From contig JAFGND010000034.1 of NCBI GenBank assembly GCA_016927185.1, forward strand, positions 62,001 to 97,426: 35,426 nucleotides of DNA. The letters run 5' to 3'. Below the pieces are notes generated by a model. It did not search any database. It was not told the origin of the DNA and saw only the letters and a program-made list of their open reading frames with translations. Source of the stretch: Candidatus Coatesbacteria bacterium (GTDB lineage: Bacteria > JAFGND01). A program made the translations under genes and the position numbers. This document shows, piece by piece, positions 12,366-30,963 of this stretch (position 1 is its first letter; each line of letters opens with the position of its first letter).

Positions 12366-12823
12366 AAGTATCAGTAATATATCTAAATCAGGAGAAATCA
12401 TTGGAATCATTATGGATTGGGAAAGTGATAAATGAAATAGTAGTCTCTGAAAAGAATATGATAGATTTAGAGGATTCTTCAATCAACATAGTCTTTGCAA
12501 GCGAAGAACAGATGAAAAGTTTGAACCTTGAATACAGGAGAAAGAATTTTTCCACTGATGTTCTTGCATTCAAGTATGAGGATAATGATTTCAATGATGA
12601 AGAAAAAATATCAGGAGAGATTGTAATCGCAGAAGAGTATATAAGGAGGCAGGCAAAAGAGGAGGGTGTTCCATATAATGAAGAACTGGCGAGAATGATT
12701 ATACATGGATTTCTGCATATTCTGGGTTATGACCACAAAAACAAGAAAGATCTTAAGAATATGACAGAAAAGACAGAAAACTACCTCTCCTTAACAAGAG
12801 GCTACTGGGAGGATATGAAATAA
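12362..12823 (+). CDS. ybeY: rRNA maturation endoribonuclease YbeY
   Basis: LNLEYR..TDVLAF, GEIVI and the zinc motif HGFLHILGYDH. ATGA overlap with the upstream stop. Confidence 0.95.
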   Translation: MKVSVIYLNQEKSLESLWIGKVINEIVVSEKNMIDLEDSSINIVFASEEQMKSLNLEYRRKNFSTDVLAFKYEDNDFNDEEKISGEIVIAEEYIRRQAKEEGVPYNEELARMIIHGFLHILGYDHKNKKDLKNMTEKTENYLSLTRGYWEDMK

Positions 12824-14358
12824 GTACTTTCATTTATCTGGAAGAAGCAGATATAAATGATGCCAGACTCGTCTTCAAGTGGCATAATGACAAGAAAACA
12901 AGAGAAATGTCATTTCATAAAAAACAGGTTTCATGGGAAGAATTTTTCAAGAAATATACCGAAAACGCATCTAAATCGAAAATTAAACCATTGATTGCTT
13001 ATCATAAAGGCAAGAGAATAGCTTTCATTTCCTTTAACGAAACTCCATATGAAGATGAAATAGAAATAAACATAAACATGGCTCCCGAAGCAAGGGGAAA
13101 AGGATTAGCTTCTGAGGTAATAAACAGGAGTTGCAGAATTCCCTTTCAGAAAGATATTAATATTATCCATGCATATATCAAATGTAATAATATTCAATCT
13201 ATAAAGTCATTCGAGAAAGCTGGATTTTATTTCTCAGAAAAAACATCAAAGATAAAGGAAATTAATAGCAAAGATTCAATAGAGATTTTCAGGTTTTCAA
13301 AACAAAAAACAGAACATAAAGATGATACTGAAAAGGTATTCATAATAGCAGAAGCTGGCTCAAATACAATCATGGGTAATACCAGGTTGAGTATGGAAAT
13401 GTCTAAAGCACTGATTGATGTCGCTGTAAATGCAAAAGCCGATGCAGTCAAGTTCCAGCTTTTCAATTCAAAATCCCTTTATGTAGAAGAAGCAGGAAAA
13501 GCAGGATATCTTTCAAAGAGAATAAAGAAAGAATCAATAAATGAGATAATAAGAAGCATTGAACTCCCGACAGAGATCATCAAGGACATATCAGAATACT
13601 GTTCTGAAAAGAATATAGAATTGATGATCACTCCATTTTCTGTTGATGAAGCAGTCATTGTCAATAAATATGTAAAAAGACATAAACTTGCTTCTGCAGA
13701 AATTACGCATATCAGGCTTATTGAATATATGGCAAACACAAAGAAACCTGTTATCATTTCAACTGGTGGAGCATCTATTGAGGAAATTGAGTGGACAGTC
13801 AATCATTTTTACAGAAACAGTGGAAAGGATATCGCAATAATGCATTGCTTGCTTGACTATCCTGCAAAACCTGATTCACTCAATCTCAATATAATAAAAG
13901 GGCTGAAGGAGCATTTCTGTCTGAAAGTAGGTCTATCTGATCATAGCTTATCTTTTGAAAGTGTTCCTGTTGCAGCGGTATCACTGGGAGCAAGGATTAT
14001 TGAGAAGCATTTTACCTTAAGCAGGAAACTGCCCGGTCCAGATAACTTCTATTCACTTGAACCTGAAGAACTCAAGAAAATGGTATGCCTGATAAGGGAA
14101 ACTGAGCAGATTCTTGGCAAATCCATAAAGACAGTACAGAAAAATGAGTTCAAACTTAGGGAATTTGCCCAGAGATCCATACAGGCAATTACTAATATCA
14201 GGAAAGGAGAATTATTTAAAGAGGGAGTCAATATAGGCATTTTACGTAGCGGCAACAAGACGAAAGGTATTCATCCAAAATTCATTGCTGACCTGGAAGG
14301 GAAAGAAGCCAGAAGGAATATCAGGGCAGGAGAAGGAATTATGGAGGAAGATAAATGA
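12820..14358 (+). CDS. Fusion of PseH-like GNAT N-acetyltransferase and NeuB/SpsE-type nonulosonic acid synthase (with C-terminal SAF domain)
   Basis: GNAT part has ARGKGLA and N..SIKSFEKAGF. NeuB part has IIAEAGSN, AVKFQ, ISTG, GLSDH, IEKHFTL and GPD. The GNAT-like sequence extends upstream of the first ATG (12907) to about 12820 (see findings). Confidence 0.85.
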   Translation: MSTFIYLEEADINDARLVFKWHNDKKTREMSFHKKQVSWEEFFKKYTENASKSKIKPLIAYHKGKRIAFISFNETPYEDEIEININMAPEARGKGLASEVINRSCRIPFQKDINIIHAYIKCNNIQSIKSFEKAGFYFSEKTSKIKEINSKDSIEIFRFSKQKTEHKDDTEKVFIIAEAGSNTIMGNTRLSMEMSKALIDVAVNAKADAVKFQLFNSKSLYVEEAGKAGYLSKRIKKESINEIIRSIELPTEIIKDISEYCSEKNIELMITPFSVDEAVIVNKYVKRHKLASAEITHIRLIEYMANTKKPVIISTGGASIEEIEWTVNHFYRNSGKDIAIMHCLLDYPAKPDSLNLNIIKGLKEHFCLKVGLSDHSLSFESVPVAAVSLGARIIEKHFTLSRKLPGPDNFYSLEPEELKKMVCLIRETEQILGKSIKTVQKNEFKLREFAQRSIQAITNIRKGELFKEGVNIGILRSGNKTKGIHPKFIADLEGKEARRNIRAGEGIMEEDK

Positions 14359-15065
14359 TGATTCTTGCTGTCTTGCTTGCAAGAATGAAATCAGAGAGAC
14401 TTCCAGGAAAAATAATGAAAACCTTGCTTGGAAAACCGGCTATTTATCATATAATGAAAAGAATAGAAAGATCAAGATTAATACAAAAAACAATTATCGC
14501 AATGCCGGATACCGAAAAGAATATTGAAAATGGTGCATATGTAAACTTCTGCAGGGATTTTCACATTGAACTTGGTTCTGAGTTGAATGTACTGGATAGA
14601 TATTACAGTGCTGTGACTAATTTCTTGAAGGACGAGATTCCCGAAGAATTGAAATTGGTTAGATTGACTGCTGATTGTCCATTGATTGATCCTGGAATAA
14701 TAGATGACACAATAAAAGCATTTCTTGAAAAAGATACTCTTGATTACATGATTTCAGATAATATTAGTAATCCAAAAGGTTTTGATATCGAAGTATTCAC
14801 TTTTACTGCATTACAAAAGGCATGGAACAGTGCATCAGCTCCAGATGATATTGAACATGTTACCCCATATATAAGAAACACTGGCAGATTCAAATGCGAT
14901 GTCTTCAGGTTTAAAAGCGGACTTCCCAGAGATGTTAATTTTAGCATGGATACTCAAAAAGACTATGAATTAATAAAAGAAATATACGAATATTATGGAA
15001 ATAATAATTTTTCAATTGACGATATAAGGCTCTGGTACAATAAAGTTAAGAGAAATAATGACTGA
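14355..15065 (+). CDS. SpsF/PseF-like acylneuraminate cytidylyltransferase family protein
   Basis: ARMKSERLPGK, GSELNVLDRY, RLTADCPLIDP, PKGFDIEVF and EHVTPYI motifs. Confidence 0.85.
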   Translation: MMILAVLLARMKSERLPGKIMKTLLGKPAIYHIMKRIERSRLIQKTIIAMPDTEKNIENGAYVNFCRDFHIELGSELNVLDRYYSAVTNFLKDEIPEELKLVRLTADCPLIDPGIIDDTIKAFLEKDTLDYMISDNISNPKGFDIEVFTFTALQKAWNSASAPDDIEHVTPYIRNTGRFKCDVFRFKSGLPRDVNFSMDTQKDYELIKEIYEYYGNNNFSIDDIRLWYNKVKRNND

Positions 15066-16320
15066 AGCGTTAATATCATTTTTATATTTATTTCAATATA
15101 TTGCGTTTTTATTATTACTGAGTGCTTCCGCTTTTTTCTCAAGCACTGAAACAGGCTTCTTCTCACTCAGTGAATTAGACAAATCTGCTCTTGAAGAAAA
15201 AAATCCTCTATTAAAGAAATACTTCGTTGATTTATCAAGAAGAGCTGAGCAATTCTTGATATCAATACTCATGGGAAACACATTCGTGAATGTTCTTTTG
15301 TCATCTATAGTAACAATAATAACTGTAAATGCTATAGGTGACAAGACTGGTCAGGAAGAAGCAACTGCAATAGCAATTCCAATAATCACTTTCATCCTAT
15401 TGATATTCGGAGAAATCACTCCAAAGACTTATGCTTTTGCAAAATCAAAAGATTATCTGCCTAGAGTTTTGAAAATTGCTTATTTTTATTTCAGGGCAAC
15501 AGAACCCATAAGTTGGATTCTGGTTTTTATCTCAACAAAACTCACTGGGAAAGCTGAAAGCAGGAAAAAAGGATTGCTGACGCTGGAGGAGCTTAAGCTA
15601 ATGGTGGATCAAGGACAGGAAATAGATGCAGAAGAAAAGGAGATGATTCACAGCATATTCAAGTTCGGCGAAACCTCAATAAAGGAAGTAATGACTCCAA
15701 GACATGATATAATAGCCATGTCCATAAAATCAACAATAAGAGATTGCTGGGAAATCTACAGGACACACCAGTATTCAAGGATACCGGTTTTTCAGAATAA
15801 TTTTGATGATATTGTAGGGATTTTCTATTCAAGGGATATCTTCAAGTTTCTTGATGAGCCTGATAGAACATTAGAGCAAACCAATCTTAGAAATGTCAGT
15901 TTCATTCCTGAAGTAAAGAATATTGAAGATCAACTTCTCGATTTTCAGAAAAGCAGACAGCATATTGCAGTAGTTGTAGACGAATACGGAGGAACTTCAG
16001 GAATAGTGACTTTAGAGGATATCCTGGAAGAAATTGTTGGAGAAATAACCGATGAAAAAGATGAAGTAGAACAGAATATAATCAAGATAGATAACAGAAC
16101 ATACCTGATAAGAGCTAAAACCTCCATTGAAGATGTTTCAGAAATCATTACTGAGGAATTACCGGAAAGAAATTATGAGACTATTGGAGGTTTTGTCTAT
16201 AGCAAACTTGGAAGGGTTCCAAAAGCTGGTGATGTGATCGCCTGGAACAATTATAGATTCAGCATTGAGAAAATACAGAAAAGAAGAATACTCTGGATAA
16301 GGTTATGCATAAAGGATTAA
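15058..16320 (+). CDS. HlyC/CorC (CNNM-CBS-CorC) family transporter
   Basis: SAFFSSTETGFFSL, GNTFVN, FGEITPK, VMTPR, YSRIPV, VVDEYGGTSGIVTLEDILEEIVGEI and YETIGG motifs. Confidence 0.93.
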   Translation: MTEALISFLYLFQYIAFLLLLSASAFFSSTETGFFSLSELDKSALEEKNPLLKKYFVDLSRRAEQFLISILMGNTFVNVLLSSIVTIITVNAIGDKTGQEEATAIAIPIITFILLIFGEITPKTYAFAKSKDYLPRVLKIAYFYFRATEPISWILVFISTKLTGKAESRKKGLLTLEELKLMVDQGQEIDAEEKEMIHSIFKFGETSIKEVMTPRHDIIAMSIKSTIRDCWEIYRTHQYSRIPVFQNNFDDIVGIFYSRDIFKFLDEPDRTLEQTNLRNVSFIPEVKNIEDQLLDFQKSRQHIAVVVDEYGGTSGIVTLEDILEEIVGEITDEKDEVEQNIIKIDNRTYLIRAKTSIEDVSEIITEELPERNYETIGGFVYSKLGRVPKAGDVIAWNNYRFSIEKIQKRRILWIRLCIKD

Positions 16321-17645
16321 TGAAAATTGCACTTTTGATACTTGCATTATCAAGCCTGCTTCATGCAGCAAATGATAATGCCATTTTCGAGATAAACATT
16401 TGGCTTACGCTTATTGCACTGTCAATAATTGGAGCTGGTATTTTTGCAGGTGCTGAAACAGCTTTTACAGTTATTAACAGGTTCAAGATAAAACTGGATG
16501 CTGATCATGGTGACAAGGTAGCAGAACGTATAAAAATACTGCTTCACAAGCCAGACAGATTCATTGCTACGACATTAGTGGCAACCAATCTTTGTGTAGT
16601 AGCTGCATCATCTCTTGTTTCTTCGCTAGTTTTAAAACTGGTGAAAGGAGTTCCATATGAAACAGTTTATCTGTCCATAGCTCCTGTCTTGACAACAATA
16701 ATCTTGATGATTGCTGGAGAGATAATTCCAAAGATTATTGCTATAAATTATGCAGATGTTCTTTCCAAGTATCTGTATATTCCGATATGGACCTGTAATT
16801 ATCTATTGCATCCAGCTGTCTGGCTTACAAGCACTATTTCAAGAGGAATACTTGCTTTGTTCAAGATCAAGTCAAAGGATCCTTTCACAATGGATATTTC
16901 AAGACAGGATATAAGCAGAGCGATTTCCAGAGGTGAGGAAGCTGGATTGCTTGATAATCATGAAAGAAAGATGCTAGCTAGCGTATTGACTTTTTCAAGC
17001 AAGACAGCAAGGGATCTTATGGTTCCGAGACTGGAAACCATAGCAGCGCCTGTTAATGCAACTTACAAAGAGCTTATTTCAATAAGCCAGCAATATGGAA
17101 TCTCAAGAATAATCATATATGAAAACGAGATTGAAAATACGATTGGTTTTGTTCATATATTAGACTTATTGCTTGTAAAAGAAGAGGGGCAAACAGCAAG
17201 AAACTTCCTGAGAGACTTGCCTTATTTTCCAGAAACAAAATTCTGCGACAAATTACTTAAGGACTTGAAGGCATCAAGAGTAGGTATTGCAGGAATAATA
17301 GATGAATTCGGGACTTTTCAGGGGATAGTTACATTGGAGGATCTGCTTGAAGCCTTGTTTGGTGATATAAAGGATGAATTCGATATTGAAGAAGATGAAG
17401 ATGTAAAGCTTCTGAAAGATGGTACTTACGCAGTTTATCCTGGAATCACAATTGAAGAACTCAGGGAAAAATTACAAATAAATATTCCACCTTCAGGAAA
17501 TTATGAAACTCTTTCTGGTTATCTGTTGTATAATTTCAAGAGAATTCCAAGGAAGAATGAAGTTCATGACAAGTTTGGATATGAATTCAAGATAACCGAA
17601 GCTTCTTCAAGAAAAATTGAGTTAATAAACATAAAGAAAAAATAA
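16320..17645 (+). CDS. Second HlyC/CorC (CNNM-CBS-CorC) family transporter
   Basis: FAGAETAF, GEIIPK, LMVPR, IDEFG...GIVTLEDLLEALFGDIKDE and YETLSG motifs. TAATG overlap with the upstream gene. Confidence 0.9.
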   Translation: MKIALLILALSSLLHAANDNAIFEINIWLTLIALSIIGAGIFAGAETAFTVINRFKIKLDADHGDKVAERIKILLHKPDRFIATTLVATNLCVVAASSLVSSLVLKLVKGVPYETVYLSIAPVLTTIILMIAGEIIPKIIAINYADVLSKYLYIPIWTCNYLLHPAVWLTSTISRGILALFKIKSKDPFTMDISRQDISRAISRGEEAGLLDNHERKMLASVLTFSSKTARDLMVPRLETIAAPVNATYKELISISQQYGISRIIIYENEIENTIGFVHILDLLLVKEEGQTARNFLRDLPYFPETKFCDKLLKDLKASRVGIAGIIDEFGTFQGIVTLEDLLEALFGDIKDEFDIEEDEDVKLLKDGTYAVYPGITIEELREKLQINIPPSGNYETLSGYLLYNFKRIPRKNEVHDKFGYEFKITEASSRKIELINIKKK

Positions 17646-17761
17646 GCGGTCAGTTACCCCTGTATCATAAAAATTGAACATATCAATAATATCAATCTAT
17701 TTACTTGACATAACTAGTTTGATTTAAATAGAAAGCAATGGAATAAACATGGAGGTTATGA

Positions 17762-18553
17762 ATGCGTAATATTTTTGTTTTTGCATTAATCATTCTTGGT
17801 TTTGGCTTGTTATCTGCAGATGCCATAGATTTAGGTCCTCATGGAGGAATGTCTTTTGGTTACAAGAATCCGACAAATCCGGACGAGAAACTTGAATTGG
17901 CACCATCAGTAGGTTTTCATTTCAATATAAGGGCAGCAAAGGTACTTGATTTTGGGGGATATTTTACATATACTCACCTGGGAAAATATCCATTTACCAT
18001 GAAGGATTTCATTGAGAGATATATGGGAACAGATATGGAAAACTATTTTAATGATTTTTTCAAGGATCAATCAAATGCATCCCAGTTTAATCAATATATG
18101 GGTAAATATGGTTTTTCATATGAGCAGTTTCAACAGCAAGGATTTGATGGATTCAAGAAGTACATGGAAGACAGAATGGCTGAAATGGGTAATGATACAT
18201 TAATGATGGTCAATTATCATGAAATAGGTATTGGTATTGATGTAAGGAAGAGATTTCCACTTCCAGGTGGAGTAGTACAACCTTTCATTGGTGCAGGAGG
18301 CAATGTCCATTTTCAGACATCAGATGATCAGATGCTGTCAGTTCTTGCCCAGACGCAGACAGGAACAAGCTCTTCATTCTCAGCTTTCAAATTGAACACT
18401 GTCCCTGGAATGCATGTATTTGGTGGTATAATAATCAAGCCGCCTGCTGTTCCTCTTGGTTTCAATGTCGAATACAGACAGAATTTCCAATTCAAGAGAG
18501 ATACTACAAATGCATATGGTAATTTGACAGGGGGATTATCTTTAACTTTCTAG
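17762..18553 (+). CDS. Outer-membrane beta-barrel protein with a large helical insertion
   Basis: Signal peptide, alternating amphipathic strands (GFHFNIR, PFIGAGGNVHF, GFNVEYRQ) and a C-terminal beta-signal GLSLTF. Strong SD GGAGG at 17751. Confidence 0.7.
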   Translation: MRNIFVFALIILGFGLLSADAIDLGPHGGMSFGYKNPTNPDEKLELAPSVGFHFNIRAAKVLDFGGYFTYTHLGKYPFTMKDFIERYMGTDMENYFNDFFKDQSNASQFNQYMGKYGFSYEQFQQQGFDGFKKYMEDRMAEMGNDTLMMVNYHEIGIGIDVRKRFPLPGGVVQPFIGAGGNVHFQTSDDQMLSVLAQTQTGTSSSFSAFKLNTVPGMHVFGGIIIKPPAVPLGFNVEYRQNFQFKRDTTNAYGNLTGGLSLTF

Positions 18554-18569
18554 ATAACAGAAAGAAATT

Positions 18570-20861
18570 ATGAAAAATGAAGAGATGGGTAGACGAAAAA
18601 ATCTACCCTTTCTTTCGAAACCATCATTATTGATGGAAATTCTTTCTGTCTGTCTGCTATTCATGTCTGCAGTAGGATACAAGATCTATTTACAGAGCAC
18701 AAATCCCAGACTGAGAAATAATGGTGTTAACTTGTTTTTTTCAGAATCTGCAATTCAGTATTATTATGCAAAGCAAATTTCTGAAGGGAAAAAACTAGAT
18801 GAGATAGATAAGAAAGCTCAATTTCCAGAAGGTTTCCCTGTTGCTGAATCACTGACTCTGGGGATTGAGTACATTACAGGTTTATCATATAGACTGATGG
18901 GTTTAGGATATTTACCATTCCATAGATTCCTCCTTTTCATGATTTGCATATATAGCAGTTTATCTGTTTTTGTGTTCTTCTATTGCTGCAAAACTGTCTA
19001 TTCATCATATCCACTATCCATGCTTTTAACGATATTCTATATTGTATTTCCACCAGTTTATCAGAGAACTATTGGTAATTTCCTGAAGGAGGATCTTGCA
19101 ATCCCGTTCTTGTTTCTCTGGTTTCTTGGACAGCTTCTATCAAGCAGAAATCTGAGATTATCCTTGATTTTTTCAATAATCGGTCTAAGCGGAGCTCTTC
19201 TTTTCTGGCATGTAAGTCCTTTTTTCATATACATTGCACTAACAGTATATCTTGTTAAATATGTAATTGAAGAAAACAAGGATATTGTTTTCAAGATGTC
19301 TATATTGCATTTCATTATCATAATTTTCATATCAATTATTTCCAAGCCTAACATGAAGGCAGAGCTTTATTTGTCACCTGTTGTATTCGCATTCGGATTG
19401 ATTCCCCTGACTTTGATACTTAACAGGAAAATAATAAGGAAAAATAGCAGGTTCTTTTATATTTCTTCTGCATTCCTGATATTGCTTATCTCTTTTGTTT
19501 TATCCAAAATGACAAGAAGCAATCCAGAAACCTACAGCCATGTCATAGAGTTCCTCCTGGCAAAAATCCGTCATTTGGGAAGTAAACCATCTGATCCATC
19601 CTTGCTTAGCTTTAATGCCAGATTGTTATGGTTAACTCCTTTCATTGCACCATCATTAAAGAACCTGATTGTCTTCTGGACAATACCTGTTGCATCCTTT
19701 TTTCTTGGATTAAGATATCTACTTAAAAACTACGATTATAATATAAAAATCTGGCTGTTTATACCTGCACTGATATGCTTTGCTGGATTCATTACTATTT
19801 CAAGACTTGCTCCTTTGTCTGCCTTCCTCCTTGTTTTGATTATAGGGAATCTCATTTTAGCATATCCTGCATACAGGAAGATAATCCTTTCAGTCTTGTT
19901 GATTGTTTTCTCATTCAATCTGTTTGCTTTTTTCAAACTCAATCTTGAAAAACCAGCTGAACATGGTTTATATATGCAGAATGATGATATTACAGATGTA
20001 ATAAATTTCTTCAAGGAAAATACTGAAGAAAATGAGGCAATACTCGGAAGATTCTCGACATCAGCTTCTTTTCTTGCTTATGCAGATAAATCAATAGTTC
20101 TTCAGCCAAAATTTGAAAACAGGATTATCAAATCAAAGGTAATGGAATATTACAAAGCATTTTTCGAACCTGAAGAAGTGATGTTCAGTCTTTGCAGCAA
20201 AAACGGGATAAAATATATAGTTTATGAAGCAAATATGTTGCTTTCAAGTGATGAAAACTCTTTCAGGTATCTTTGTAATGGACTAAATATTCCAAGAAAT
20301 TCGCTTATCAGATATTTTCATTTTAATCCTTCAGGATTGAGACACTTCAGATTGATTTATGAAAATTTCTTCTTCAGGATTTTCGAATGCGGGGATAAAT
20401 TTAATTTCAAGGAATTCAATCTATGCAATATCATATATTCAAAAGAAATTTGGGGTATCAATGATTTCAATGATGAACTTGATAATGAATATATTAACAC
20501 TCAGATAAATAAATACATGAAAGCAGTGAAAATGAATAATGAAGCCATGAAAAGCATTGGGAAAAAAGAATACGGAATTGCTGAAAGGCAGTTAGAAGAA
20601 GCTAATCACCTGTTCCAGTATCTTGATAAAACCCAAGGAAATCTGGCTATGCTATATTATAAATCAGGAAGAAAAGAAAAGGCAGTCAAGATTCTGGAAA
20701 AACTTGCAGAACAATATCCTGCCAATTATCAAGCATTATTGTTTTTAGAACAGATTTACAGGGATATAAACAGTCAGGATAAAGTCAAAATAATAGAGGA
20801 AAAAAGAAAAAAAATTCGTTCTTTACTTTTTTTCAGGAAAAACAGAATTGTCTTTAATTAA
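18570..20861 (+). CDS. GT-C fold membrane glycosyltransferase resembling DPY19 C-mannosyltransferases, with C-terminal TPR repeats
   Basis: About 13 hydrophobic segments, a soluble C-terminal domain and a TPR-like tail, with a motif series colinear with DPY19 (see findings). No STT3 WWDYG motif. The true start may be ATG 18633, after the hairpin. Confidence 0.75.
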   Translation: MKNEEMGRRKNLPFLSKPSLLMEILSVCLLFMSAVGYKIYLQSTNPRLRNNGVNLFFSESAIQYYYAKQISEGKKLDEIDKKAQFPEGFPVAESLTLGIEYITGLSYRLMGLGYLPFHRFLLFMICIYSSLSVFVFFYCCKTVYSSYPLSMLLTIFYIVFPPVYQRTIGNFLKEDLAIPFLFLWFLGQLLSSRNLRLSLIFSIIGLSGALLFWHVSPFFIYIALTVYLVKYVIEENKDIVFKMSILHFIIIIFISIISKPNMKAELYLSPVVFAFGLIPLTLILNRKIIRKNSRFFYISSAFLILLISFVLSKMTRSNPETYSHVIEFLLAKIRHLGSKPSDPSLLSFNARLLWLTPFIAPSLKNLIVFWTIPVASFFLGLRYLLKNYDYNIKIWLFIPALICFAGFITISRLAPLSAFLLVLIIGNLILAYPAYRKIILSVLLIVFSFNLFAFFKLNLEKPAEHGLYMQNDDITDVINFFKENTEENEAILGRFSTSASFLAYADKSIVLQPKFENRIIKSKVMEYYKAFFEPEEVMFSLCSKNGIKYIVYEANMLLSSDENSFRYLCNGLNIPRNSLIRYFHFNPSGLRHFRLIYENFFFRIFECGDKFNFKEFNLCNIIYSKEIWGINDFNDELDNEYINTQINKYMKAVKMNNEAMKSIGKKEYGIAERQLEEANHLFQYLDKTQGNLAMLYYKSGRKEKAVKILEKLAEQYPANYQALLFLEQIYRDINSQDKVKIIEEKRKKIRSLLFFRKNRIVFN
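18587..18615 (+). terminator. Probable intrinsic terminator after the beta-barrel gene
   Basis: GGGTAGA (18587-18593), an 8-nt loop, TCTACCC (18602-18608), then TTTCTTT. Confidence 0.55.
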
Positions 20862-20882
20862 AATAAAAGGAATGATTGTTAA

Positions 20883-21977
20883 ATGACAGTATTATTGAAT
20901 GCCACAATGATAGGTAACAAAAGTGGCACTGGAAGATATTGCATGGGTGTGATAAATGGGTTTTCGACTATTAGTGGCAGAAACAAGGATGTCTATGAGG
21001 AATTAATCTTTTTCATTCCTGATGGTTTTACCGTAAAGAATCTCAAATGCAGGGAAATAAATGTAAGCGACAGCCATATAAGCAGAATAATGTGGGAACA
21101 AACAACACTTCAGCTTAACAGTTCGTCTTCAACGATAATACATGGATTATCATTCACTTTGCCAATTTTTTACAGCGGAAAAGGCGTATTAACAGTTCAT
21201 GATATGGCTTATAAACGCTATCCAGAAACATTGTTAAAGAGAAAAAGAATGTATTACAATTTTGTAATAGACAGATCAATAAGATCTGCTGATATTATTA
21301 TAGCTATTACTGAGTTTACTGCAGCTGAGATCAGCCACTTTTTTCCTGATGTAAGGAGCAAGATAAAAGTAATATATCCTGGAGGAGGTTTCCTGCCAAA
21401 TGTAACCAAGGAAGAATCTGAAGAAACTAAAATACTTTATAAATTGAATAATCCTTATTATTTGACTGTAGGTACTCTAGAGCCAAGAAAAAATCTGGAA
21501 TTCATGCTTTCTTCATATAGAAGCTACTTGAAAGAAGGTGGGGAAATAGATCTTGTTATTGTTGGAAGAAGAGGATGGCTTGATTCCAATATATTTGAAC
21601 CTTACCAGGATATCATAAATCAGAACAAGTTGCATTTGCTTGGTTACCTTTCTGACAAGGAGCTTGCTTCCTTATATGCTGAATCTCAGGCTCTGGTTTT
21701 CCCATCAAAGTATGAAGGTTTTGGTTTGCCTCTGCTTGAATGCTGGCAAATGGGAACTGCTGCAATAATCCCCAATGCTCACGCTCTTGCTGAGATAGGA
21801 AGAAAGGCTGCCTTGTATTTTGAACCTGGTAATGAAGAATCTCTCGCAGAATGCCTTACACAACTTGAAGACCCAGTTGATTTGAATATCTATGAAGAGA
21901 GGGGCAAGGAAAGGGCAAAAGATTTTTCCTGGGAGAAATGTGCAGCTGAACTCTGGGAAACATACAAATCCTTATAA
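20883..21977 (+). CDS. GT4 family glycosyltransferase (MtfB/WbdB-like subgroup)
   Basis: GTGRY, TVHDMA, VGTLEPRKN, the EX7E motif FPSKYEGFGLPLLE, and FSWEKCA. Confidence 0.92.
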   Translation: MTVLLNATMIGNKSGTGRYCMGVINGFSTISGRNKDVYEELIFFIPDGFTVKNLKCREINVSDSHISRIMWEQTTLQLNSSSSTIIHGLSFTLPIFYSGKGVLTVHDMAYKRYPETLLKRKRMYYNFVIDRSIRSADIIIAITEFTAAEISHFFPDVRSKIKVIYPGGGFLPNVTKEESEETKILYKLNNPYYLTVGTLEPRKNLEFMLSSYRSYLKEGGEIDLVIVGRRGWLDSNIFEPYQDIINQNKLHLLGYLSDKELASLYAESQALVFPSKYEGFGLPLLECWQMGTAAIIPNAHALAEIGRKAALYFEPGNEESLAECLTQLEDPVDLNIYEERGKERAKDFSWEKCAAELWETYKSL

Positions 21978-21981
21978 AATC

Positions 21982-22413
21982 ATGTATAAAAAATCACTAC
22001 TTCTTCTTCTATCAATAAACCTTATTGCCTGCAAATGCATATTACCGGATCCTGTTATCACTAGATATGGTGTAAAGAATGATTTGAAAATGTTCCCCCA
22101 GGATAATCCAAGAATGACTTTACGTTCAATAATAAAGGCAATAGAACTTAAGAGATTTGACTATCTTCTTGCTCACTTGATATATCCTGACCTTATCAAG
22201 ATTGAATTAGGTTCAGATTCTTTTGAAAATCTTGTTTTGCATACAAGAGAGAATTTTACAAGTGGCAAGAAAAACGCAGACAAACTCAGGGAATTTCTAA
22301 AGGACGGAATACTTGTTTATTTTGGCAGACAGGCAGCAGTTATAAGATTGCAGGATGGGAGTCAAATTCAGTTCATGGAAGAGGATGACTTATGGTACAT
22401 GAACAGGCACTGA
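21982..22413 (+). CDS. Putative lipoprotein, unknown function
   Basis: ATG 21982 gives MYKKSLLLLLSINLIA-C (lipobox-like) and removes the overlap with the GT4 gene. Confidence 0.65.
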   Translation: MYKKSLLLLLSINLIACKCILPDPVITRYGVKNDLKMFPQDNPRMTLRSIIKAIELKRFDYLLAHLIYPDLIKIELGSDSFENLVLHTRENFTSGKKNADKLREFLKDGILVYFGRQAAVIRLQDGSQIQFMEEDDLWYMNRH

Positions 22414-22414
22414 G

Positions 22415-23599
22415 ATGATTTACTCTGTCATCTTTTTCGTTATATTGCTTTTGGGAACTATTCATGCAGATATAGTGCTTCTTGATGATCAGTTTGATAG
22501 CAATGAAAATGCCTGGCAAATAGATAACAAATATTCCATGATAAATGATGGAAATCTCATTATAAAGAGTGACTTGAATAGCGAAAAGCATATATATTGT
22601 GAAAGACTTGAATTACCCCGGGATGGAATATCCATAGAAAGCAGTTTTACTAAAATAGCTGGTGATGATTCTACTGTTTACGGGATTATTATTGCTGGAA
22701 AGGACAATAAAGAATTAATTATATTATTCAATGGTAACTGCCAGGTAAAGGCATATTTGAAAACCAGTAATAACCTCAATCTTTTGTTTAAGAAAGATGA
22801 ATCTCTTTTTATTCATCCAGGGAATTCCTCGAATATATTAAAAACAATCTTGAAAAGAGGAGCTCTTGAGATTTACATGAACTCGTTCTTTATAAGCAAG
22901 ATTGATAATATTGAAATATCTCCCCATAAAACCGGGATTTACGCAAGCAACAATATCGAATTGAAGATTAACAATGTAAGAATATGCTCGGAAAAAGAAG
23001 GTTTCCTGATGAGGATTTCAAAAAAACCCTTGCTTATAGAGGATTTTACAGATAACAGGAATAAATGGGACACTTACAAGACTGAGAGAGAGGAAGAAAA
23101 AATCGAAAACGGGTTTTATAAAATCAAATTCAAGCATGATCTTCAAAGAGCTATAAATCCTCAATGCAACTCATTTCAAATGCCTGTCTTGAAACCGATT
23201 TCAATAGAAGCAAATTGCAGACTGATAAGCGGCTCTAATCTGTCAGGTTATGGAATTACTTTCGCAGCCAGGGATGTAGAGAATACTTATTTATTTGAAA
23301 TCAATGGTTCTTCAGATTACCTGATAGCAAAAACAGAAAAAGGTATGTTGAGAATTTTAGTTCCATGGACAAAGAATACGGCAATAAAACCTGACAAAGA
23401 TGAAAACAAGATAACCATAATAATAAACAACAATAAGATACTTTTTTATGTGAATGATAAATTCTTGCATTTACTTGAGGGGTTTTCTCCGCGAGGTGGT
23501 AAAATAGGTTTCAGGGTGAATGGATTTATGGAAATGCATATAGATAAAGTTGTTGTAAGCACTCTTGAATACAGGAATGAAGATATTGATGAAAAATAA
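22415..23599 (+). CDS. Exported protein with two tandem concanavalin-A/DUF1080-like beta-sandwich domains
   Basis: Signal peptide (…GTIHA) and an internal duplication: LLDDQFDSNENAW/LLIEDFTDNRNKW, YGIII/YGITF, LEIYMNSFFI/ILFYVNDKFL. Confidence 0.65.
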   Translation: MIYSVIFFVILLLGTIHADIVLLDDQFDSNENAWQIDNKYSMINDGNLIIKSDLNSEKHIYCERLELPRDGISIESSFTKIAGDDSTVYGIIIAGKDNKELIILFNGNCQVKAYLKTSNNLNLLFKKDESLFIHPGNSSNILKTILKRGALEIYMNSFFISKIDNIEISPHKTGIYASNNIELKINNVRICSEKEGFLMRISKKPLLIEDFTDNRNKWDTYKTEREEEKIENGFYKIKFKHDLQRAINPQCNSFQMPVLKPISIEANCRLISGSNLSGYGITFAARDVENTYLFEINGSSDYLIAKTEKGMLRILVPWTKNTAIKPDKDENKITIIINNNKILFYVNDKFLHLLEGFSPRGGKIGFRVNGFMEMHIDKVVVSTLEYRNEDIDEK

Positions 23600-25166
23600 G
23601 GAAGCTTTTTCACAGAAGATGAATGCATTTCTTTTCTGGTGTCTTGTTTTCATTTTTGTTTTCAGGTGCATATTCCCTGAAAACCTTTTTCCACAGTACT
23701 TTAATAGCAAGCCATCAGAATTCAGCTTCTTGCATCCCTTGTTTTTAGGGGTACATCACTTTGTCGGAATGGTTTTCACTATTATCTTGTTTCTTCTTTT
23801 CATGATTAACTGGTTTGTAACAAGGAAGAAAATTGCAGAACTTCCTCTGGGAAATCTAATTGCAGCTGGACTTGTCTGGTTAATGCTTACTGCTATTGGG
23901 GATATAATTCTTTCATTATCATTTAAACGTTTTGCTTTTTACTTGCTTAATATTGCATTCATGATTTATATCTTGTATTCATATTTCGCAAGAAAAGACA
24001 GAAAGAAACTCAAGTTCTTTTTCATAATCGGAACTATACTGGTAATATCAGTAGTATATTTTACAATAGTATCAGGCCACAATCTTAACAGGGAAATATG
24101 CTTTCAGCAAATATATTATCTAATCATGACTGCAGTGCTTCTTTTCTTTTTAACTCAGCAAATAATCAATAGCCAAAAGAGAATCTCTCTATTCCTTAAG
24201 ATAATTTTGTTCACAGGTGCATTTGTTGCATTACTCGGAATTCTGGAACTGATTTTCAAAAGAAATATTCTATATGAAAAATGGTTCCTCATATATCATG
24301 AGATATATATAAGAAGATCCTCATTGATAGTAATGGATGCAAATTTAAAACCTACAGGATTTTATGGAAGGGTATTCTCTACAATCGGTCATCCAGCCTA
24401 TCTTTCACAATTCCTCATATTCCCCATGTTTATTGGCTTCTATTATCTTCTTAAGGAAGGAGAATGGAAAAAGAAAATTTCATATGCCATTTCAGTGATC
24501 CTTATTCTGTTCTGCATGGGAATAACCCTTACAAGAGCATCATGGCTGGGTAGTCTGGCAGGAATTGCAGGTATAATATTAACTAGCAGATTTTTTATAA
24601 AAAATATAAGGAAGATATATATTTTTGCAGGTTTGATATTATTGTCATGCATAGTATTGCTTTCCATCCCTGTCATAAGAAAACGGGTTTATTCAAGATT
24701 GTTTGTACAGATAGGTACTACCTCAAGAGCTTTTGGACATAGATTTCAGAAATTTGAAAGCGTGAAATCCATAATAAGGCAAAAACCATTTATGGGTTTA
24801 GGATTCGGAATGTATTATTTCAAATATAAGGACTATTTAAGGCAGGATCAGTATTATAAGGATCCTACTCTTGACATAGTTGATAATCAATATCTTGAAT
24901 TGCTGTGCGAAATTGGATTATCAGGAGGAATAATCCTTTTCCTGTGGATTTTATATAATCTGAGTATAATATGGAACTATTCCAGATACAAGAAGGATCT
25001 TCTTCTATCATGTCTTTTCTGGGGATTAGTATCATTTGGTATTTCAGTTGCCATGTTAGGTAGTTTTATAACATGGTCATCATTATTGGCAACCTTCACT
25101 ATATATCTTGGGCTTGCATGGAAGAGGATTTATTACATAGAGAGAAATATCAGTCTAGAAGATTGA
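23589..25166 (+). CDS. O-antigen ligase / Wzy_C family membrane protein
   Basis: Polytopic membrane protein with RVFSTIGHPAYL, TLTRASWLG, P.MGLGFG and NQYLELLCEIG motifs. Confidence 0.8.
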   Translation: MKNKEAFSQKMNAFLFWCLVFIFVFRCIFPENLFPQYFNSKPSEFSFLHPLFLGVHHFVGMVFTIILFLLFMINWFVTRKKIAELPLGNLIAAGLVWLMLTAIGDIILSLSFKRFAFYLLNIAFMIYILYSYFARKDRKKLKFFFIIGTILVISVVYFTIVSGHNLNREICFQQIYYLIMTAVLLFFLTQQIINSQKRISLFLKIILFTGAFVALLGILELIFKRNILYEKWFLIYHEIYIRRSSLIVMDANLKPTGFYGRVFSTIGHPAYLSQFLIFPMFIGFYYLLKEGEWKKKISYAISVILILFCMGITLTRASWLGSLAGIAGIILTSRFFIKNIRKIYIFAGLILLSCIVLLSIPVIRKRVYSRLFVQIGTTSRAFGHRFQKFESVKSIIRQKPFMGLGFGMYYFKYKDYLRQDQYYKDPTLDIVDNQYLELLCEIGLSGGIILFLWILYNLSIIWNYSRYKKDLLLSCLFWGLVSFGISVAMLGSFITWSSLLATFTIYLGLAWKRIYYIERNISLED

Positions 25167-25596
25167 TAGTCTTAAATCCTTCCAGTTTAGCAAGTTTTAT
25201 TAGAGTTGTATTGGAACTTAAAAAATAATCAAGTCCAAGTTTCAAGAGAGGTTTGGCTGATGCCACATGGATTGCTTCCCTTGCTGAAATATCCATTTTT
25301 GTGCCATAAGTTTCAAGCAGATTCATTGCTATTGTGAATATATGATAATCATATTTTATTATATGAAAATTACTCATATCCTCATGGAATAGTTGTAGCT
25401 GCTTTTTTGCCACTGATTCAGTTAATGCATTCCTTCTGATGAGTGAGTAAATCGCTGAGATGAACTCCAGTCTTGCCAATGCTGAAATTGTCAAGGAATC
25501 AGTAGGTTTTATCAAATCATCAAGTTTTGAGGAACCCTGTTCATTATGATATAATTTTATCAATGCAGTTGTTTCAAGAAAAATTCGCCCCATCAT
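25150..25596 (-). CDS. VapC-like PIN domain protein with atypical acidic residues
   Basis: IFLETTALIKLY..E.GS, ISALARLEFISA, EAIHVASA, FLSSN..L...AKLEGF: the overall VapC pattern. Confidence 0.8.
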   Translation of the reverse strand: MMGRIFLETTALIKLYHNEQGSSKLDDLIKPTDSLTISALARLEFISAIYSLIRRNALTESVAKKQLQLFHEDMSNFHIIKYDYHIFTIAMNLLETYGTKMDISAREAIHVASAKPLLKLGLDYFLSSNTTLIKLAKLEGFKTINLLD

Positions 25597-25601
25597 GTCT
25601 C

Positions 25602-25811
25602 CTATTTTAACAATCCTTCATCAGCAATAGATTCAGATACATTACTCAATAATTTCCTGGACTGCACAAAAGAAAATCTCTTTATCTGGGAATCAGACTG
25701 TTCTGGTATTTCATCAAGAAACGTTACAATTACCTTCATTGGTTCACTGAATGCAACCTTCTCTTGTAACACAATCTCACCCTTTTGATAAATACCACGG
25801 ACAGAAAGCAT
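25602..25811 (-). CDS. Putative antitoxin (AF2212/DUF104-like) paired with PIN gene
   Basis: MLSVRGIYQKGEIVLQE..KVIVTFL beta-rich N-terminus. SD AAGGAGGG precedes ATG 25811, and the gene ends 5 nt upstream of the PIN gene. Confidence 0.7.
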   Translation of the reverse strand: MLSVRGIYQKGEIVLQEKVAFSEPMKVIVTFLDEIPEQSDSQIKRFSFVQSRKLLSNVSESIADEGLLK

Positions 25812-25912
25812 ATTCCCTCCTTTAGATACATTACGGAAATACTTGTCACTATCCAATAGTATAAATTGTCAACTTAAAAAAGAAGTGCAAAAGACAGTTG
25901 TTTTGATTGTCA

Positions 25913-25944
25913 TTCAGAATGCTTATTGATAAAGCTATTCTGAA
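25913..25944. promoter_or_regulatory. Inverted repeat between divergent antitoxin and mnmE genes (possible operator)
   Basis: TTCAGAAT-GCTT...AAGC-T-ATTCTGAA. Confidence 0.35.
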
Positions 25945-25996
25945 ATAACAGTATCTTTTTCTTGCCTAAAGCTTTGTCGAAAAAAAGAATGGTTAC

Positions 25997-27361
25997 ATGA
26001 ATAGTAATCTGGTTAATATAAATGACTCAATATGTGCAATAGCAACGACACTAGGTTATTCTGCTATTTCAATCATAAGATTATGCGGCAATGAGACATT
26101 TGATTTATTGAAATTATTCTTCTGTCCTTCTTTTCCAAAGAGGCTTGAGAAAACTAAAGGTTTCAGTATTCATAGTGGTTTAATAGTGGATGCAAATATA
26201 GTAATAGATGATGTAATAGTTGCTGTATACAGAAAACCTCATTCATATACTGGTGAGGATATGGCAGAAATTTTTTGCCATGGAGGATTGACTGTTCCAG
26301 CTCAGATACTTCATATATGCACAAAGCATGGTTTCAGAATGGCTTCTGAAGGTGAATTCACAAGAAGAGCTTTCATTAATGGAAAAATGAATTTGATGCA
26401 GGTTGAAGCAATCTCTGATATTCTTACTTCTACTAATAGTAATGTTTCTAAAACCGCAGTAAACAATCTCTCCAAGGATAAGCATAAAAAACTTCAGGAT
26501 ATCTTCGCAGACATAAATGAAGTTGTCATTCAGGGAGAAGTTAATCTTGATTTCTCTGAAGATGAACAGATTGAAATGAAAGAACTTGATATAGTGGCAT
26601 ACATAGAATATCTTGACTTAATAGTAAAGCATTCAGAAGATTATATTCCTGTAAAAAACGGGTTAAATATCTTGATTGCTGGACCTCCTAATTCAGGCAA
26701 GTCAAGCCTCTTCAATACAATTCTCAACCAGGACAGGTCAATAGTTTCTCATGTTCCCGGTACAACAAGAGATTATATATCTGAAAAAATCATCTTGCAT
26801 GAAAAGGAAATTACCATAGTTGATACTGCTGGTTATGATCTGACAGGAGATGAAATAACAAGAGAAGGCATGAAAAAGGCAGAAGAGCTTCTTTCAAATG
26901 CAAATGCAATAATTTATCTCATAGCTCCATGTGATCTTCAAGATATATCCTGTCATGAGAAGAAAGTCGCTGAATGGAAGCATGTTTTCAAAGTACCAGT
27001 ATTTGCAGTTTTGAATAAAACAGATCTTCTTGAAAAAAGTGTAACTAATAATGATTTATTGAAGATCTCAGTTAAAGAAGGAACAGGGATCAAGGATCTA
27101 CTTACTGAAATAGATAAATGGATGTCCGATACCTTTCCAGAGGATTATACAATACCTCTTGCATTGAATCAAAGGCAATTAAATCTTTTCAAAAAAATCA
27201 GAACTTCATTAATAGAGGCGAAAAACACCAGAAATATCAGCATAGAGTTATATATAGAAAACCTGAGGCATGCATTGTCTTTTTTTGAAGAACTATTTGG
27301 GATAAAAGTCCTGCAGGAAATACTTGATGAGATTTTCAGCAGATTTTGCATAGGAAAATGA
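25997..27361 (+). CDS. mnmE: tRNA modification GTPase MnmE (TrmE)
   Basis: AIAT..G, SYTGED..E..CHGG, GEFTRRAF.NGK, GPPNSGKSS, GTTRD, DTAG, NKTD and the C-terminal FCIGK. Confidence 0.95.
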   Translation: MNSNLVNINDSICAIATTLGYSAISIIRLCGNETFDLLKLFFCPSFPKRLEKTKGFSIHSGLIVDANIVIDDVIVAVYRKPHSYTGEDMAEIFCHGGLTVPAQILHICTKHGFRMASEGEFTRRAFINGKMNLMQVEAISDILTSTNSNVSKTAVNNLSKDKHKKLQDIFADINEVVIQGEVNLDFSEDEQIEMKELDIVAYIEYLDLIVKHSEDYIPVKNGLNILIAGPPNSGKSSLFNTILNQDRSIVSHVPGTTRDYISEKIILHEKEITIVDTAGYDLTGDEITREGMKKAEELLSNANAIIYLIAPCDLQDISCHEKKVAEWKHVFKVPVFAVLNKTDLLEKSVTNNDLLKISVKEGTGIKDLLTEIDKWMSDTFPEDYTIPLALNQRQLNLFKKIRTSLIEAKNTRNISIELYIENLRHALSFFEELFGIKVLQEILDEIFSRFCIGK

Positions 27362-30183: not shown

Positions 30184-30963
30184 ATGAAGCATATAATCAT
30201 ATTACTTTTAGTTTTCTGTATTTTCTCATGCAGCAAGGGGACAAAGGAAAAACAAGACAAGCAACTGCCTAAGGATCCTCCAAATGAGGAAATAGAAAAA
30301 ATAAAGGATCTTGTAAGGAAGCATAATCTTCTTAATGCTGAGGCAAATGTCATCTATCTGAAGAGATTATATCCTGAATCAGGTGAAATAGACTTTCTTT
30401 ATGGAATAATCCATTTTAATCAGGAGAACTATGACAAGGCATTGGAAATGCTATTGAGTGCTGAGAACAAGGGATATTCCAATCTGGTCTTGAATCTCAT
30501 TCTTGCAAATACATATGAACTTAAGGGTGATGTTGCAAGAGCTAAGTACAGATACAAGTTGATAATTAAGGAACAGAAAGAAAAAGGGCAGGATTGTAAA
30601 TCAATAGAAATCAGGGTTAGCATACTGACCAATCTCCAGACTATCAAGAATGAAGAATATGAACCAATTTATTATATAAGAAAAGGTGTCAGATCCTGTG
30701 AAAAAGAGGAATATAAAGTTGCACTCAATGAATTCCTGTTGGGACTGGGAAGATTTTATTATTTGCAGGAACAGGGTAAATCAACATGGGCTGCCAATCA
30801 AAGTGAACTGGAATGGATGAGAACTGCAGTTGATAATCTATACCAGAACGATCAAATTGAATATGCGAAATGGAATGATTTCCTTGATTACTGCTTCACG
30901 GAACGATTTTCAGGATTATTCGAATATCTTGAAGCTTTGTATCTTCTTAACGTGACTCTATAA
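30184..30963 (+). CDS. TPR-containing putative lipoprotein
   Basis: MKHIIILLLVFCIFS-C lipobox-like start and TPR-like helices (YGIIHFNQENYDKAL, LANTYELKGDVARA). Confidence 0.65.
   Translation: MKHIIILLLVFCIFSCSKGTKEKQDKQLPKDPPNEEIEKIKDLVRKHNLLNAEANVIYLKRLYPESGEIDFLYGIIHFNQENYDKALEMLLSAENKGYSNLVLNLILANTYELKGDVARAKYRYKLIIKEQKEKGQDCKSIEIRVSILTNLQTIKNEEYEPIYYIRKGVRSCEKEEYKVALNEFLLGLGRFYYLQEQGKSTWAANQSELEWMRTAVDNLYQNDQIEYAKWNDFLDYCFTERFSGLFEYLEALYLLNVTL

Follow-up and report, generated by a model that had tools for sequence, protein, structure and literature searches.

The window analysed here, a stretch of 35,426 nucleotides from the Candidatus Coatesbacteria contig JAFGND010000034.1 (assembly GCA_016927185.1, positions 62,001 to 97,426 of the forward strand), carries an intact open reading frame (ORF) encoding a 763-amino-acid (aa) membrane protein related to the DPY19 tryptophan C-mannosyltransferases. 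A first-pass annotation, made from the letters alone, had described this product as a bacterial DPY19-like enzyme of the glycosyltransferase-C (GT-C) type that may glycosylate tryptophan, or act as an ancestral relative on a different acceptor. Here, we analyzed its architecture, family membership, fold, residue conservation and genomic context.

Predicted architecture of the DPY19-like protein

An AlphaFold2 (AF2) model of the DPY19-like protein was computed from 70 relatives, with a mean predicted local distance difference test (pLDDT) score of 89.9 and a predicted template modelling (pTM) score of 0.91. The gene and the parts of its product are as follows:

18570..20861, + strand: DPY19-like gene, stop codon included; intact ATG ORF, 763 aa; Pfam PF10034; AF2 model
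18570..19943, + strand: membrane core, aa 1-458, with 13 transmembrane helices (AF2 helices; hydropathy and charge count)
19944..20429, + strand: periplasmic alpha/beta 'dome', aa 459-620 (AF2 strands and helices; superposes up to the C-terminus of Caenorhabditis elegans DPY-19, hereafter CeDPY19, chain residue 684)
20484..20855, + strand: C-terminal helical repeats resembling tetratricopeptide repeats (TPRs), aa ~639-762, predicted periplasmic (Pfam TPR matches below cut-off; structural matches)

According to hydropathy and charge, the basic N-terminus is cytoplasmic and the soluble C-terminal part of 305 aa (aa 459-763) is periplasmic, and the model combined with the same count delimits two long periplasmic external loops (EL), EL1 (aa 44-116) and EL5 (aa 318-362). 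Thirteen helices followed by a 305-aa soluble part agree with the polytopic protein and soluble C-terminal domain described previously. Conserved residues within the dome comprise E516, E535, R566-Y567, F585, P587, F593 and R603. The tail was matched by several Pfam TPR families with expect values (E) of 4.6e-5 to 1e-3, all under their own cut-offs, and it superposes on TPR proteins of known structure with Z-scores of 15-16 and root-mean-square deviations (rmsd) of 1.4-2.6 over ~105 residues (VIA-align). Weak TPR matches were also all that the NCBIfam models returned for the entire protein.

Sequence assigns the protein to the Dpy19 family

The whole protein matches the Pfam Dpy19 family (PF10034) with 39.8 bits (cut-off 27.2, E 2.2e-10), a score which increases to 42.5 bits when aa 1-617 are scored alone. 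Dpy19 is the sole Pfam family named for the membrane and dome part, and 21 of 23 members of the bacterial family matched PF10034 in the Pfam scan. Conversely, no match to the STT3 family (PF02516) was obtained for the DPY19-like protein up to E 10, nor is PF02516 among the 14 Pfam families matched by the 23 members (E<=0.01). The comparison of Dpy19, STT3 and PMT profiles, which had been proposed as a check of the assignment, therefore matched Dpy19 and not STT3.

As a search of the PDB with the single sequence gave just weak TPR matches, a profile was needed, which was built from 23 relatives without long tails. With this profile, the top match was CeDPY19 (7zlg_A; E 4.5e-29, 104.6 bits, profile positions 102-545 on chain residues 163-625), followed by mammalian STT3A (E 4.1e-17) and then by yeast STT3 and STT3B. 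The score for DPY-19 lies 40 bits above the one for STT3A, and PMT, ArnT, PglB and AglB are absent from the 7 distinct PDB sequences matched up to E 10. The resemblance to DPY19 is, at the level of sequence, far above chance, and, in agreement with the first-pass annotation, the same evidence identifies the protein as a genuine PF10034 GT-C enzyme and not as a member of the STT3/PglB family nor, in all likelihood, of the PMT or ArnT families.

That annotation had based its claim on blocks matched to human DPY19L1, and these were upheld in part. The window-side strings are all present, and the blocks from R166 onward (RTIGNFLKEDLAIPF; LLFWHVSPF; SHVIEFLLAK; ISRL; DVINFFKENT ... IVLQPKFEN) fall on their CeDPY19 equivalents within the significant 104.6-bit domain. 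The three N-terminal blocks did not reach the threshold against CeDPY19 (-1.6 bits), whereas they align significantly to STT3A (40.4 bits). Structurally, the entire N-terminus does superpose on DPY-19 (model residues 15-608, chain residues 23-684).

The fold is shared by DPY-19 and STT3

Superposition of the AF2 model on CeDPY19 (7zlh_A) with VIA-align gave a Z-score of 31.4 and an rmsd of 3.0 over 576 of 654 residues, but the superposition on STT3A was equally good (Z 31.3, rmsd 3.6, 553 residues). Lower Z-scores were obtained for AglB (~26), PglB (~24), PMT (~19, over the first 460 residues) and ArnT (~16). In Foldseek, the same two proteins form the top pair, with an STT3A chain at E 8.3e-16 and a TM-score of 0.66, and DPY-19 at E 1.2e-15 and a TM-score of 0.73. 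Hence, the expected match of the fold to DPY-19 was observed, without being exclusive to it: the fold by itself defines an 'STT3/DPY19 clade', and it is the sequence that points to DPY19 within it. Two findings had been named beforehand as speaking against a DPY19-like enzyme, namely a best match elsewhere and a misaligned catalytic glutamate; neither was encountered by sequence, and by structure DPY-19 and STT3A tie.

Catalytic and donor-side residues are conserved

Residue counts given below refer to columns of a 70-member family alignment, and motif patterns were scanned in 152 members. The features on the catalytic and donor side are:

18744..18746, + strand: Glu59 in EL1 (codon GAA), proposed catalytic acid/base; equivalent to CeDPY19 Glu71 and STT3A Asp49
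18807..18833, + strand: EL1 motif D80-KKAQF-P86-E87-G88; family consensus D-x-x-A-Q-Y-P-E-G
19065..19094, + strand: EL2 motif R166-TIGNF-L172-K173-E174-D175; equivalent to CeDPY19 R211...L218-R219-E220
19206..19211, + strand: W213-H214 at the periplasmic end of transmembrane helices TM5/TM6; W213 equivalent to CeDPY19 Trp262
19803..19805, + strand: Arg412 in EL6; equivalent to CeDPY19 Arg471 and STT3A Arg405, both of which bind the departing phosphate

The CeDPY19 equivalents of Glu59, the EL2 motif, Trp213 and Arg412 serve as acid/base and in binding the phosphate of dolichyl-phosphate-mannose (PMC10154233, PMC6801728); the former study also reports that Trp262 hydrogen-bonds the donor phosphate and that the exchanges R471A/Q abolish activity. 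In the bacterial family, position 59 is acidic in all 70 members (E 63, D 7). The EL1 glutamate, said to be kept in the first-pass annotation, is indeed encoded by GAA at 18744-18746; it falls on STT3A Asp49 within the significant 40.4-bit stretch and, more weakly, on CeDPY19 Glu71 in the sub-threshold N-terminal stretch. On the donor side, W213 is found in 70/70 and H214 in 66/70 sequences, and position 412 is occupied by arginine in 69/70 and by lysine in 1/70, W213 and R412 both being aligned inside the 104.6-bit stretch. Judged from these alignments, the catalytic and phosphate-binding residues of DPY-19 are conserved in the DPY19-like protein. Furthermore, the topology count, as a model, places all their equivalents, together with the dome loop described below, in periplasmic loops.

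This pattern bears on the idea that the protein is devoid of catalysis and serves as a scaffold or chaperone, binding just polyprenyl-phosphate sugars or exported proteins. Retention of the EL1 carboxylate in 70/70 members, in addition to W213 and R412, is what would be expected under selection for catalysis, and we regard a silent protein as extremely improbable.

EL2 discriminates between the two closest families, with Rx6LRE as the hallmark of DPY19 and Rx6DNE as that of STT3 (PMC6801728). The stretch R166-TIGNF-L-K-E174 of the DPY19-like protein is one residue shorter than Rx6LRE and has lysine in place of arginine. R166 is present in 60/70 and E174 in 62/70 members, and the pattern Rx5-6[LIVMF][RK]E was found in 67/152. 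In the corresponding loop of STT3A (R160...D167-N-E169), D167-N-E169 lies opposite L172-K173-E174, so that the position of the metal-binding Asp167 is taken by Leu172; the pattern Rx5-6DxE/D occurs in 1/152 members. EL1 is different in character. Its motif is well conserved (D80 69/70, P86 70/70, E87 63/70, G88 68/70) and, in the STT3A alignment, nearer to D-D-R-A-W-Y-P-L-G of STT3 than to DPY-19.

These observations raise the question of whether the protein could be a divergent oligosaccharyltransferase of the STT3/PglB/AglB kind, for which asparagine would be the acceptor and a glycan assembled beforehand on polyprenyl-pyrophosphate the donor. Such an assignment would be in line with the first rank of STT3A in Foldseek by E-value (8.3e-16) and its tie in VIA-align, with an EL1 (E-S-A-x-Q-Y-x-Y-A ... 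D-x-x-A-Q-[YF]-P-E-G) that aligns better to STT3A than to DPY-19, and with the presence of STT3 clusters among the language-model neighbours. However, PF02516 remained unmatched in both Pfam searches (the protein to E 10, the 23 members to E 0.01), the first Asp of the DxD/DNE motif is Leu172, and DPY-19 outscores STT3A by 40 bits in the profile search. Moreover, the WWD motif is absent from all 152 family members, including the DPY19-like protein, while the STT3-type control P0154 has WWDYG; the stretch aligned to the STT3A WWDYG reads F-S-T-S-A. The lack of a WWDYG motif noted in the first-pass annotation thus extends to all 152 members scanned, and an oligosaccharyltransferase appears highly unlikely.

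Taken together, the alignments depict the protein as a mosaic: it resembles DPY19 in the dome loop and on the donor and catalytic side, and STT3 in EL1, and a portion of the acceptor side is peculiar to it.

The acceptor side only partly resembles that of DPY-19

Two features of the DPY19-like protein are relevant to the acceptor:

20103..20117, + strand: dome loop Q512-P513-K514-F515-E516; equivalent to CeDPY19 H575-P576-H577-Y578-E579
19584..19631, + strand: EL5 motif K339-P-S-D-P-S-L-L-S-F-N-A-R-L-L-W354; signature of the bacterial family, no clear DPY-19 counterpart

In CeDPY19, the carbonyl of Pro576 and stacking by Tyr578, both within the H-P-H-Y-E loop, contact the acceptor tryptophan (PMC10154233). 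In the bacterial family, an aromatic residue occupies position 515 in 68/70 sequences, position 516 is acidic in all 70, and the pattern [HQN][SPC]x[FYW][ED] was found in 137/152 members. EL5 is likewise conserved (P340 69/70, P343 66/70, W354 70/70, F358 59/70; position 348 aromatic in 56/70). Within the groove for Trp(0), Pro513 and Phe515 are in place; CeDPY19 Tyr395 and Phe401 fall on Ser344 and Ala350 in a poorly supported alignment of EL5, close to which the conserved aromatic residues F348, W354 and F358 are located. At the Trp(+3) pocket, the equivalent of Arg211 is kept, while Lys473 and Leu474 are replaced by Ala414 and Pro415. Both positions vary across the family, lysine being outside the six commonest residues in the Ala414 column and V/I/P occupying the Pro415 column. 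As the Trp(+3) pocket is not kept, the sequon, if there is any, would differ from WxxW/C.

A search of 401 bacterial genomes, including 32 carriers of the family, revealed no TSP_1 domain (PF00090), although no control genome was positive either and the sensitivity of this search is unproven. In the source genome, 158 WxxW pairs compare with 147 W-x-W and 172 W-x3-W pairs, i.e. there is no excess, and individual proteins contain at most two WxxW motifs. As a separate observation, the crude ORF set of the source genome contains 220 W-x6-W pairs, above the spacings 0-5 (135-172), which a repeated domain family may cause. The TSP_1 and WxxW results count against a DPY19-like sequon and acceptor class, and not against tryptophan as the acceptor atom.

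Accordingly, a bacterial tryptophan C-glycosyl (C-mannosyl) transferase, which would substitute indole C2 electrophilically, Glu59 taking the acid/base role, in exported proteins and with a sequon of its own, has to be weighed from both sides. Every donor-side and catalytic residue of DPY-19 is kept, the metal-binding Asp is missing here just as it is from DPY-19, the loop contacting Trp(0) is recognisable as Q-P-K-F-E with its aromatic residue in 68/70 members, and the conserved aromatic positions of EL5 (348, W354, F358) could complete an indole groove. These features are opposed by the variable Ala414/Pro415 at the Lys473/Leu474 positions, by Tyr395 and Phe401 being left without secure counterparts, by the TSP_1 result (0/401 genomes, with the limit on sensitivity given above), by the WxxW counts, which parallel those of neighbouring spacings, and by a literature search that turned up no bacterial report. 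Overall, tryptophan C-glycosylation, the step originally proposed for this protein, is not borne out by these results and appears doubtful; the other possibility raised at the time, a relative with a different acceptor, is the better fit.

A broadly distributed bacterial family

When 1.84 billion representatives were searched exhaustively with HMMER, the family comprised 789 clusters at E<=1e-3, 657 at E<=1e-10 and 245 at E<=1e-30. The whole core is covered by 151 of the 154 stored family proteins. A C-terminal extension of at least 100 aa is present in 119 of these 151 members and is shorter than 40 aa in 18, and the tail consensus of the family profile matches designed TPR proteins with E 1e-187. 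Using a profile search of the 401 bacterial genomes, all of which are related to the source genome at the domain level only, the family was found in 32 genomes and in 28 of 348 genera, with 39 places listed. The source genome has one copy, and the closest stored relative of its product is 44% identical. A word-indexed homologue search returned 3 relatives from the protein and 5 from the profile, eukaryotic DPY19 not being among them, and a search of genome contigs for related loci with the single protein found nothing.

The nearest ESM Atlas clusters are bacterial and PF10034-tagged, with Planctomycetota, Verrucomicrobiota and Lentisphaerota dominating. Their automatic names are 'hypothetical protein' and, in one cluster, 'Q-cell neuroblast polarisation domain-containing protein'; as for source names, 1 of 17 listed members of 10 clusters is named, as 'tetratricopeptide (TPR) repeat protein'. 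The PF10034 tag on such proteins is thus already known from databases; what is new about this DPY19-like variant is its tail of TPRs, an EL1 resembling that of STT3 and a modified acceptor side. No publication dealing with DPY19 homologues of bacteria emerged from our literature search. C-mannosylation is treated as confined to metazoa and alveolates in PMC6801728, and bacteria appear in a 2026 review (PMC12990085) solely as degraders of C-mannosyl-tryptophan and as a lectin source.

Gene neighbourhood and donor supply

The DPY19-like gene belongs to a tight co-directional string which consists of the gene at 17762-18553, the DPY19-like gene itself, a GT4 gene, two unknown genes and a Wzy_C gene:

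17762..18553, + strand: exported 263-aa protein, 16 bp upstream of the DPY19-like gene; signal-peptide-like start, ends ...LSLTF, no Pfam match
20883..21977, + strand: GT4 glycosyltransferase, 21 bp downstream (Pfam Glycos_transf_1, 3e-22)
23565..25166, + strand: Wzy_C (O-antigen ligase/polymerase-like) membrane protein, in the same string (Pfam Wzy_C, 2.7e-18)

The upstream product is possibly an outer-membrane beta-barrel. Since it contains no tryptophan at all, it was ruled out as a tryptophan acceptor. Between the GT4 and Wzy_C genes, an exported 394-aa protein is encoded (22415-23599, + strand), which has no Pfam match and, by eye, two similar halves. Further upstream (12907-15065, + strand), a GNAT acetyltransferase-NeuB-SAF fusion is followed by a CTP_transf_3 cytidylyltransferase, and the two look like a pair for the synthesis of a nonulosonic acid (sialic, legionaminic or pseudaminic-like). 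Two tandem CNNM/CBS/CorC_HlyC genes (15058-17645, + strand) come after phoH, a 7TM-HD protein and ybeY, which corresponds to the usual phoH-ybeY-corC string with corC duplicated.

Synteny was analyzed in 21 loci, namely the window and 20 of the 39 listed places (up to 20 kb each), by clustering of ORFs and all-against-all BLAST. The 17762-18553 protein, GT4, Wzy_C and NeuB do not recur beside the DPY19-like gene in any of the 20 other loci. From the string in the window, a cytidylyltransferase-like gene (3/21 loci) and an ABC transporter (3/21) recur, and nothing else. Neither a donor gene nor an acceptor gene accompanies the family across these 21 loci. As its neighbours are not conserved, the genomic context does not identify the acceptor. 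We note that five loci of one sub-clade (L029, L034, L040, L041 and L042) display a fixed housekeeping order of RF1, rho, coaE, the DPY19-like gene, polA or a 5'-3' exonuclease, and a secretin. A scan for promoters and terminators in 12000-26200 returned counts at the shuffled expectation (61 versus 61.2 and 7 versus 6.6, respectively), so that operon limits are not inferable from it.

The source genome contains 24 GT2 genes, 6 of which encode proteins with two C-terminal hydrophobic segments. Two of these 6, at C38:5774-6754 and C1:39798-40760, gave full-length matches to polyprenyl-phosphate sugar synthases of the ArnC/PgfS/AglJ type, below the equivalog cut-offs. Judged by these matches, a donor supply from ArnC/PgfS-type GT2s encoded elsewhere in the genome is plausible.

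At the far end of the window, an in-frame TGA (33993-33995) in the context H-C-A-R-L-TGA-H-S-S-T divides the reading frame of a molybdopterin oxidoreductase of the formate-dehydrogenase type (32358-35066, - strand) in two; in all likelihood, this TGA encodes selenocysteine and does not interrupt the gene. A FdhD/MobA-like fusion gene adjoins the oxidoreductase (30958-32328, - strand).

Proposed function

We propose that the DPY19-like protein is a periplasm-facing, metal-independent glycosyltransferase that would depend on a polyprenyl-phosphate-hexose and act on an exported protein, with the acceptor residue left unspecified, a reading to which we assign a probability of roughly 0.55. The bacterial host implies the periplasm as the site and a bacterial polyprenol, rather than dolichol, as the carrier. 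The donor would be a polyprenyl-monophosphate-hexose, with mannose as the obvious guess, bound in the groove of TM6/TM11, and it could be made by the ArnC/PgfS-type GT2 enzymes encoded elsewhere. W213, R412 and R166 would hold its phosphate, and Glu59 may aid both departure of the leaving group and proton abstraction, with no metal involved. A single sugar would then be passed, with inversion, to an acceptor lying beneath the dome loop Q-P-K-F-E. This acceptor would most likely be an extended stretch of an exported protein, accommodated in the periplasm between EL5, the Q-P-K-F-E loop and the TPR tail. An exported protein is suggested by analogy, because the TPR tail parallels that of the TMTC protein O-mannosyltransferases, which carry lumenal TPRs (PMC7801869).

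Several points weigh against this proposal. Structure alone fails to separate DPY-19 from STT3A, and the sequence of the EL1 loop is closer to STT3. The basic residue of L-[RK]-E is present in just 41/70 members, so that metal independence is an extrapolation. TPRs are generic interaction modules, and 18/151 members are nearly devoid of the C-terminal extension. The neighbours that recur in the 21 loci have housekeeping roles and are confined to one sub-clade (polA or 5'-3' exonuclease 7, rho 5, coaE 5, a secretin-containing cluster 5), and the GT4, Wzy_C and NeuB genes nearby would fit a glycan or lipid acceptor equally well.

The last point leads to the possibility that the acceptor is an envelope glycan or glycolipid (lipopolysaccharide core, O-antigen, capsule or another polymer), to which a single sugar would be added in the periplasm, as is the case for ArnT, the Gtr GT-Cs and mycobacterial Emb/Aft. 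Apart from the co-directional string with GT4 and Wzy_C and the NeuB/cytidylyltransferase pair, this is consistent with a GT9 heptosyltransferase neighbour in one other locus (L033), with a dome core that is common to arabinosyltransferases (PMC10154233), and with the partial retention of the acceptor-side residues of DPY-19. However, GT4, Wzy_C and NeuB recur in none of the 20 other loci, the nearest relatives by both sequence and fold (DPY-19 and STT3) use unfolded polypeptides, and TPR tails are usual in protein-directed GT-Cs such as TMTC. We consider a glycan or glycolipid acceptor conceivable, if rather unlikely, and retain the exported protein as the preferred acceptor class.

The family provides a candidate, open to experimental test, for a hitherto undescribed glycosylation system of the bacterial periplasm. 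DPY19 and STT3 have been described as descending from a common ancestor (PMC10154233), and the family offers a prokaryotic outgroup for the question of how an enzyme in which an amide nitrogen makes the attack turned into one that accepts an aromatic carbon. In its most far-reaching form, the widespread TPR-tailed DPY19-like family would place a C-linked hexose on tryptophans of exported proteins through a non-WxxW sequon and would represent the prokaryotic stock of eukaryotic DPY19, the STT3-like EL1 together with the DPY19-like EL2 and dome loop marking the transition between N- and C-glycosylation; we offer this scenario as speculative and improbable on present evidence. If tryptophan were the acceptor, a C-glycosylated proteome would be known from bacteria for the first time; if it were not, the family would reveal which residues of the DPY19 scaffold decide on acceptor chemistry. 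At present, its interest derives from its being clearly delimited and unstudied, and not from a demonstrated activity.

Comparison with known systems

With DPY-19 and human DPY19L1-L4, the tryptophan C-mannosyltransferases of PF10034 and GT98 (PDB 7ZLG/7ZLH/7ZLI/7ZLJ), the bacterial protein shares the Pfam family, the 13-helix fold and the dome, as well as the EL1 Glu, the EL2 R...L-[RK]-E, the equivalents of Trp262 and Arg471, an H-P-H-Y-E-like loop, and the absence of both DxD and WWDYG. It differs from them by its low identity (~15%), the STT3-like EL1 motif, its own EL5 signature K-P-x-D-P-x-L-L...W, the added TPR tail and the loss of Lys473/Leu474, and by thrombospondin-repeat (TSR) acceptors not being found in the 401 genomes, with unproven sensitivity.

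STT3, AglB and PglB (PF02516, GT66) have the 13-helix architecture and the dome in common with the DPY19-like protein, with a structural score that ties with DPY-19. Their alignment also pairs the EL1 carboxylate and D..A.YP.G stretch, the Arg and the second acid of EL2, and the Arg of EL6. They are set apart by the unmatched PF02516, the replacement of the first EL2 Asp by Leu, the missing WWDYG and a profile score 40 bits below that of DPY-19.

PMT, TMTC and ArnT (GT39, GT105 and GT83) have an 11-12 helix core with DE/DD in EL1; the DPY19-like protein scores Z 19 (PMT) and 16 (ArnT) with them versus 31 with DPY-19/STT3. TMTC1-4 (GT105) and bacterial PMT_2/TMTC-like GT-Cs resemble it in the succession of a GT-C membrane domain and extracytoplasmic TPRs, and presumably in the use of polyprenyl-phosphate-sugar donors. 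TMTC belongs to another GT-C branch, which has 11 helices and a DD motif and lacks the dome; this likeness is one of domain logic and not of family.

The closest counterparts are the bacterial PF10034 clusters, which are nearest by language-model features and by predicted structure (TM-score 0.87-0.88) and agree with it in the core and, in most cases, in the C-terminal extension.

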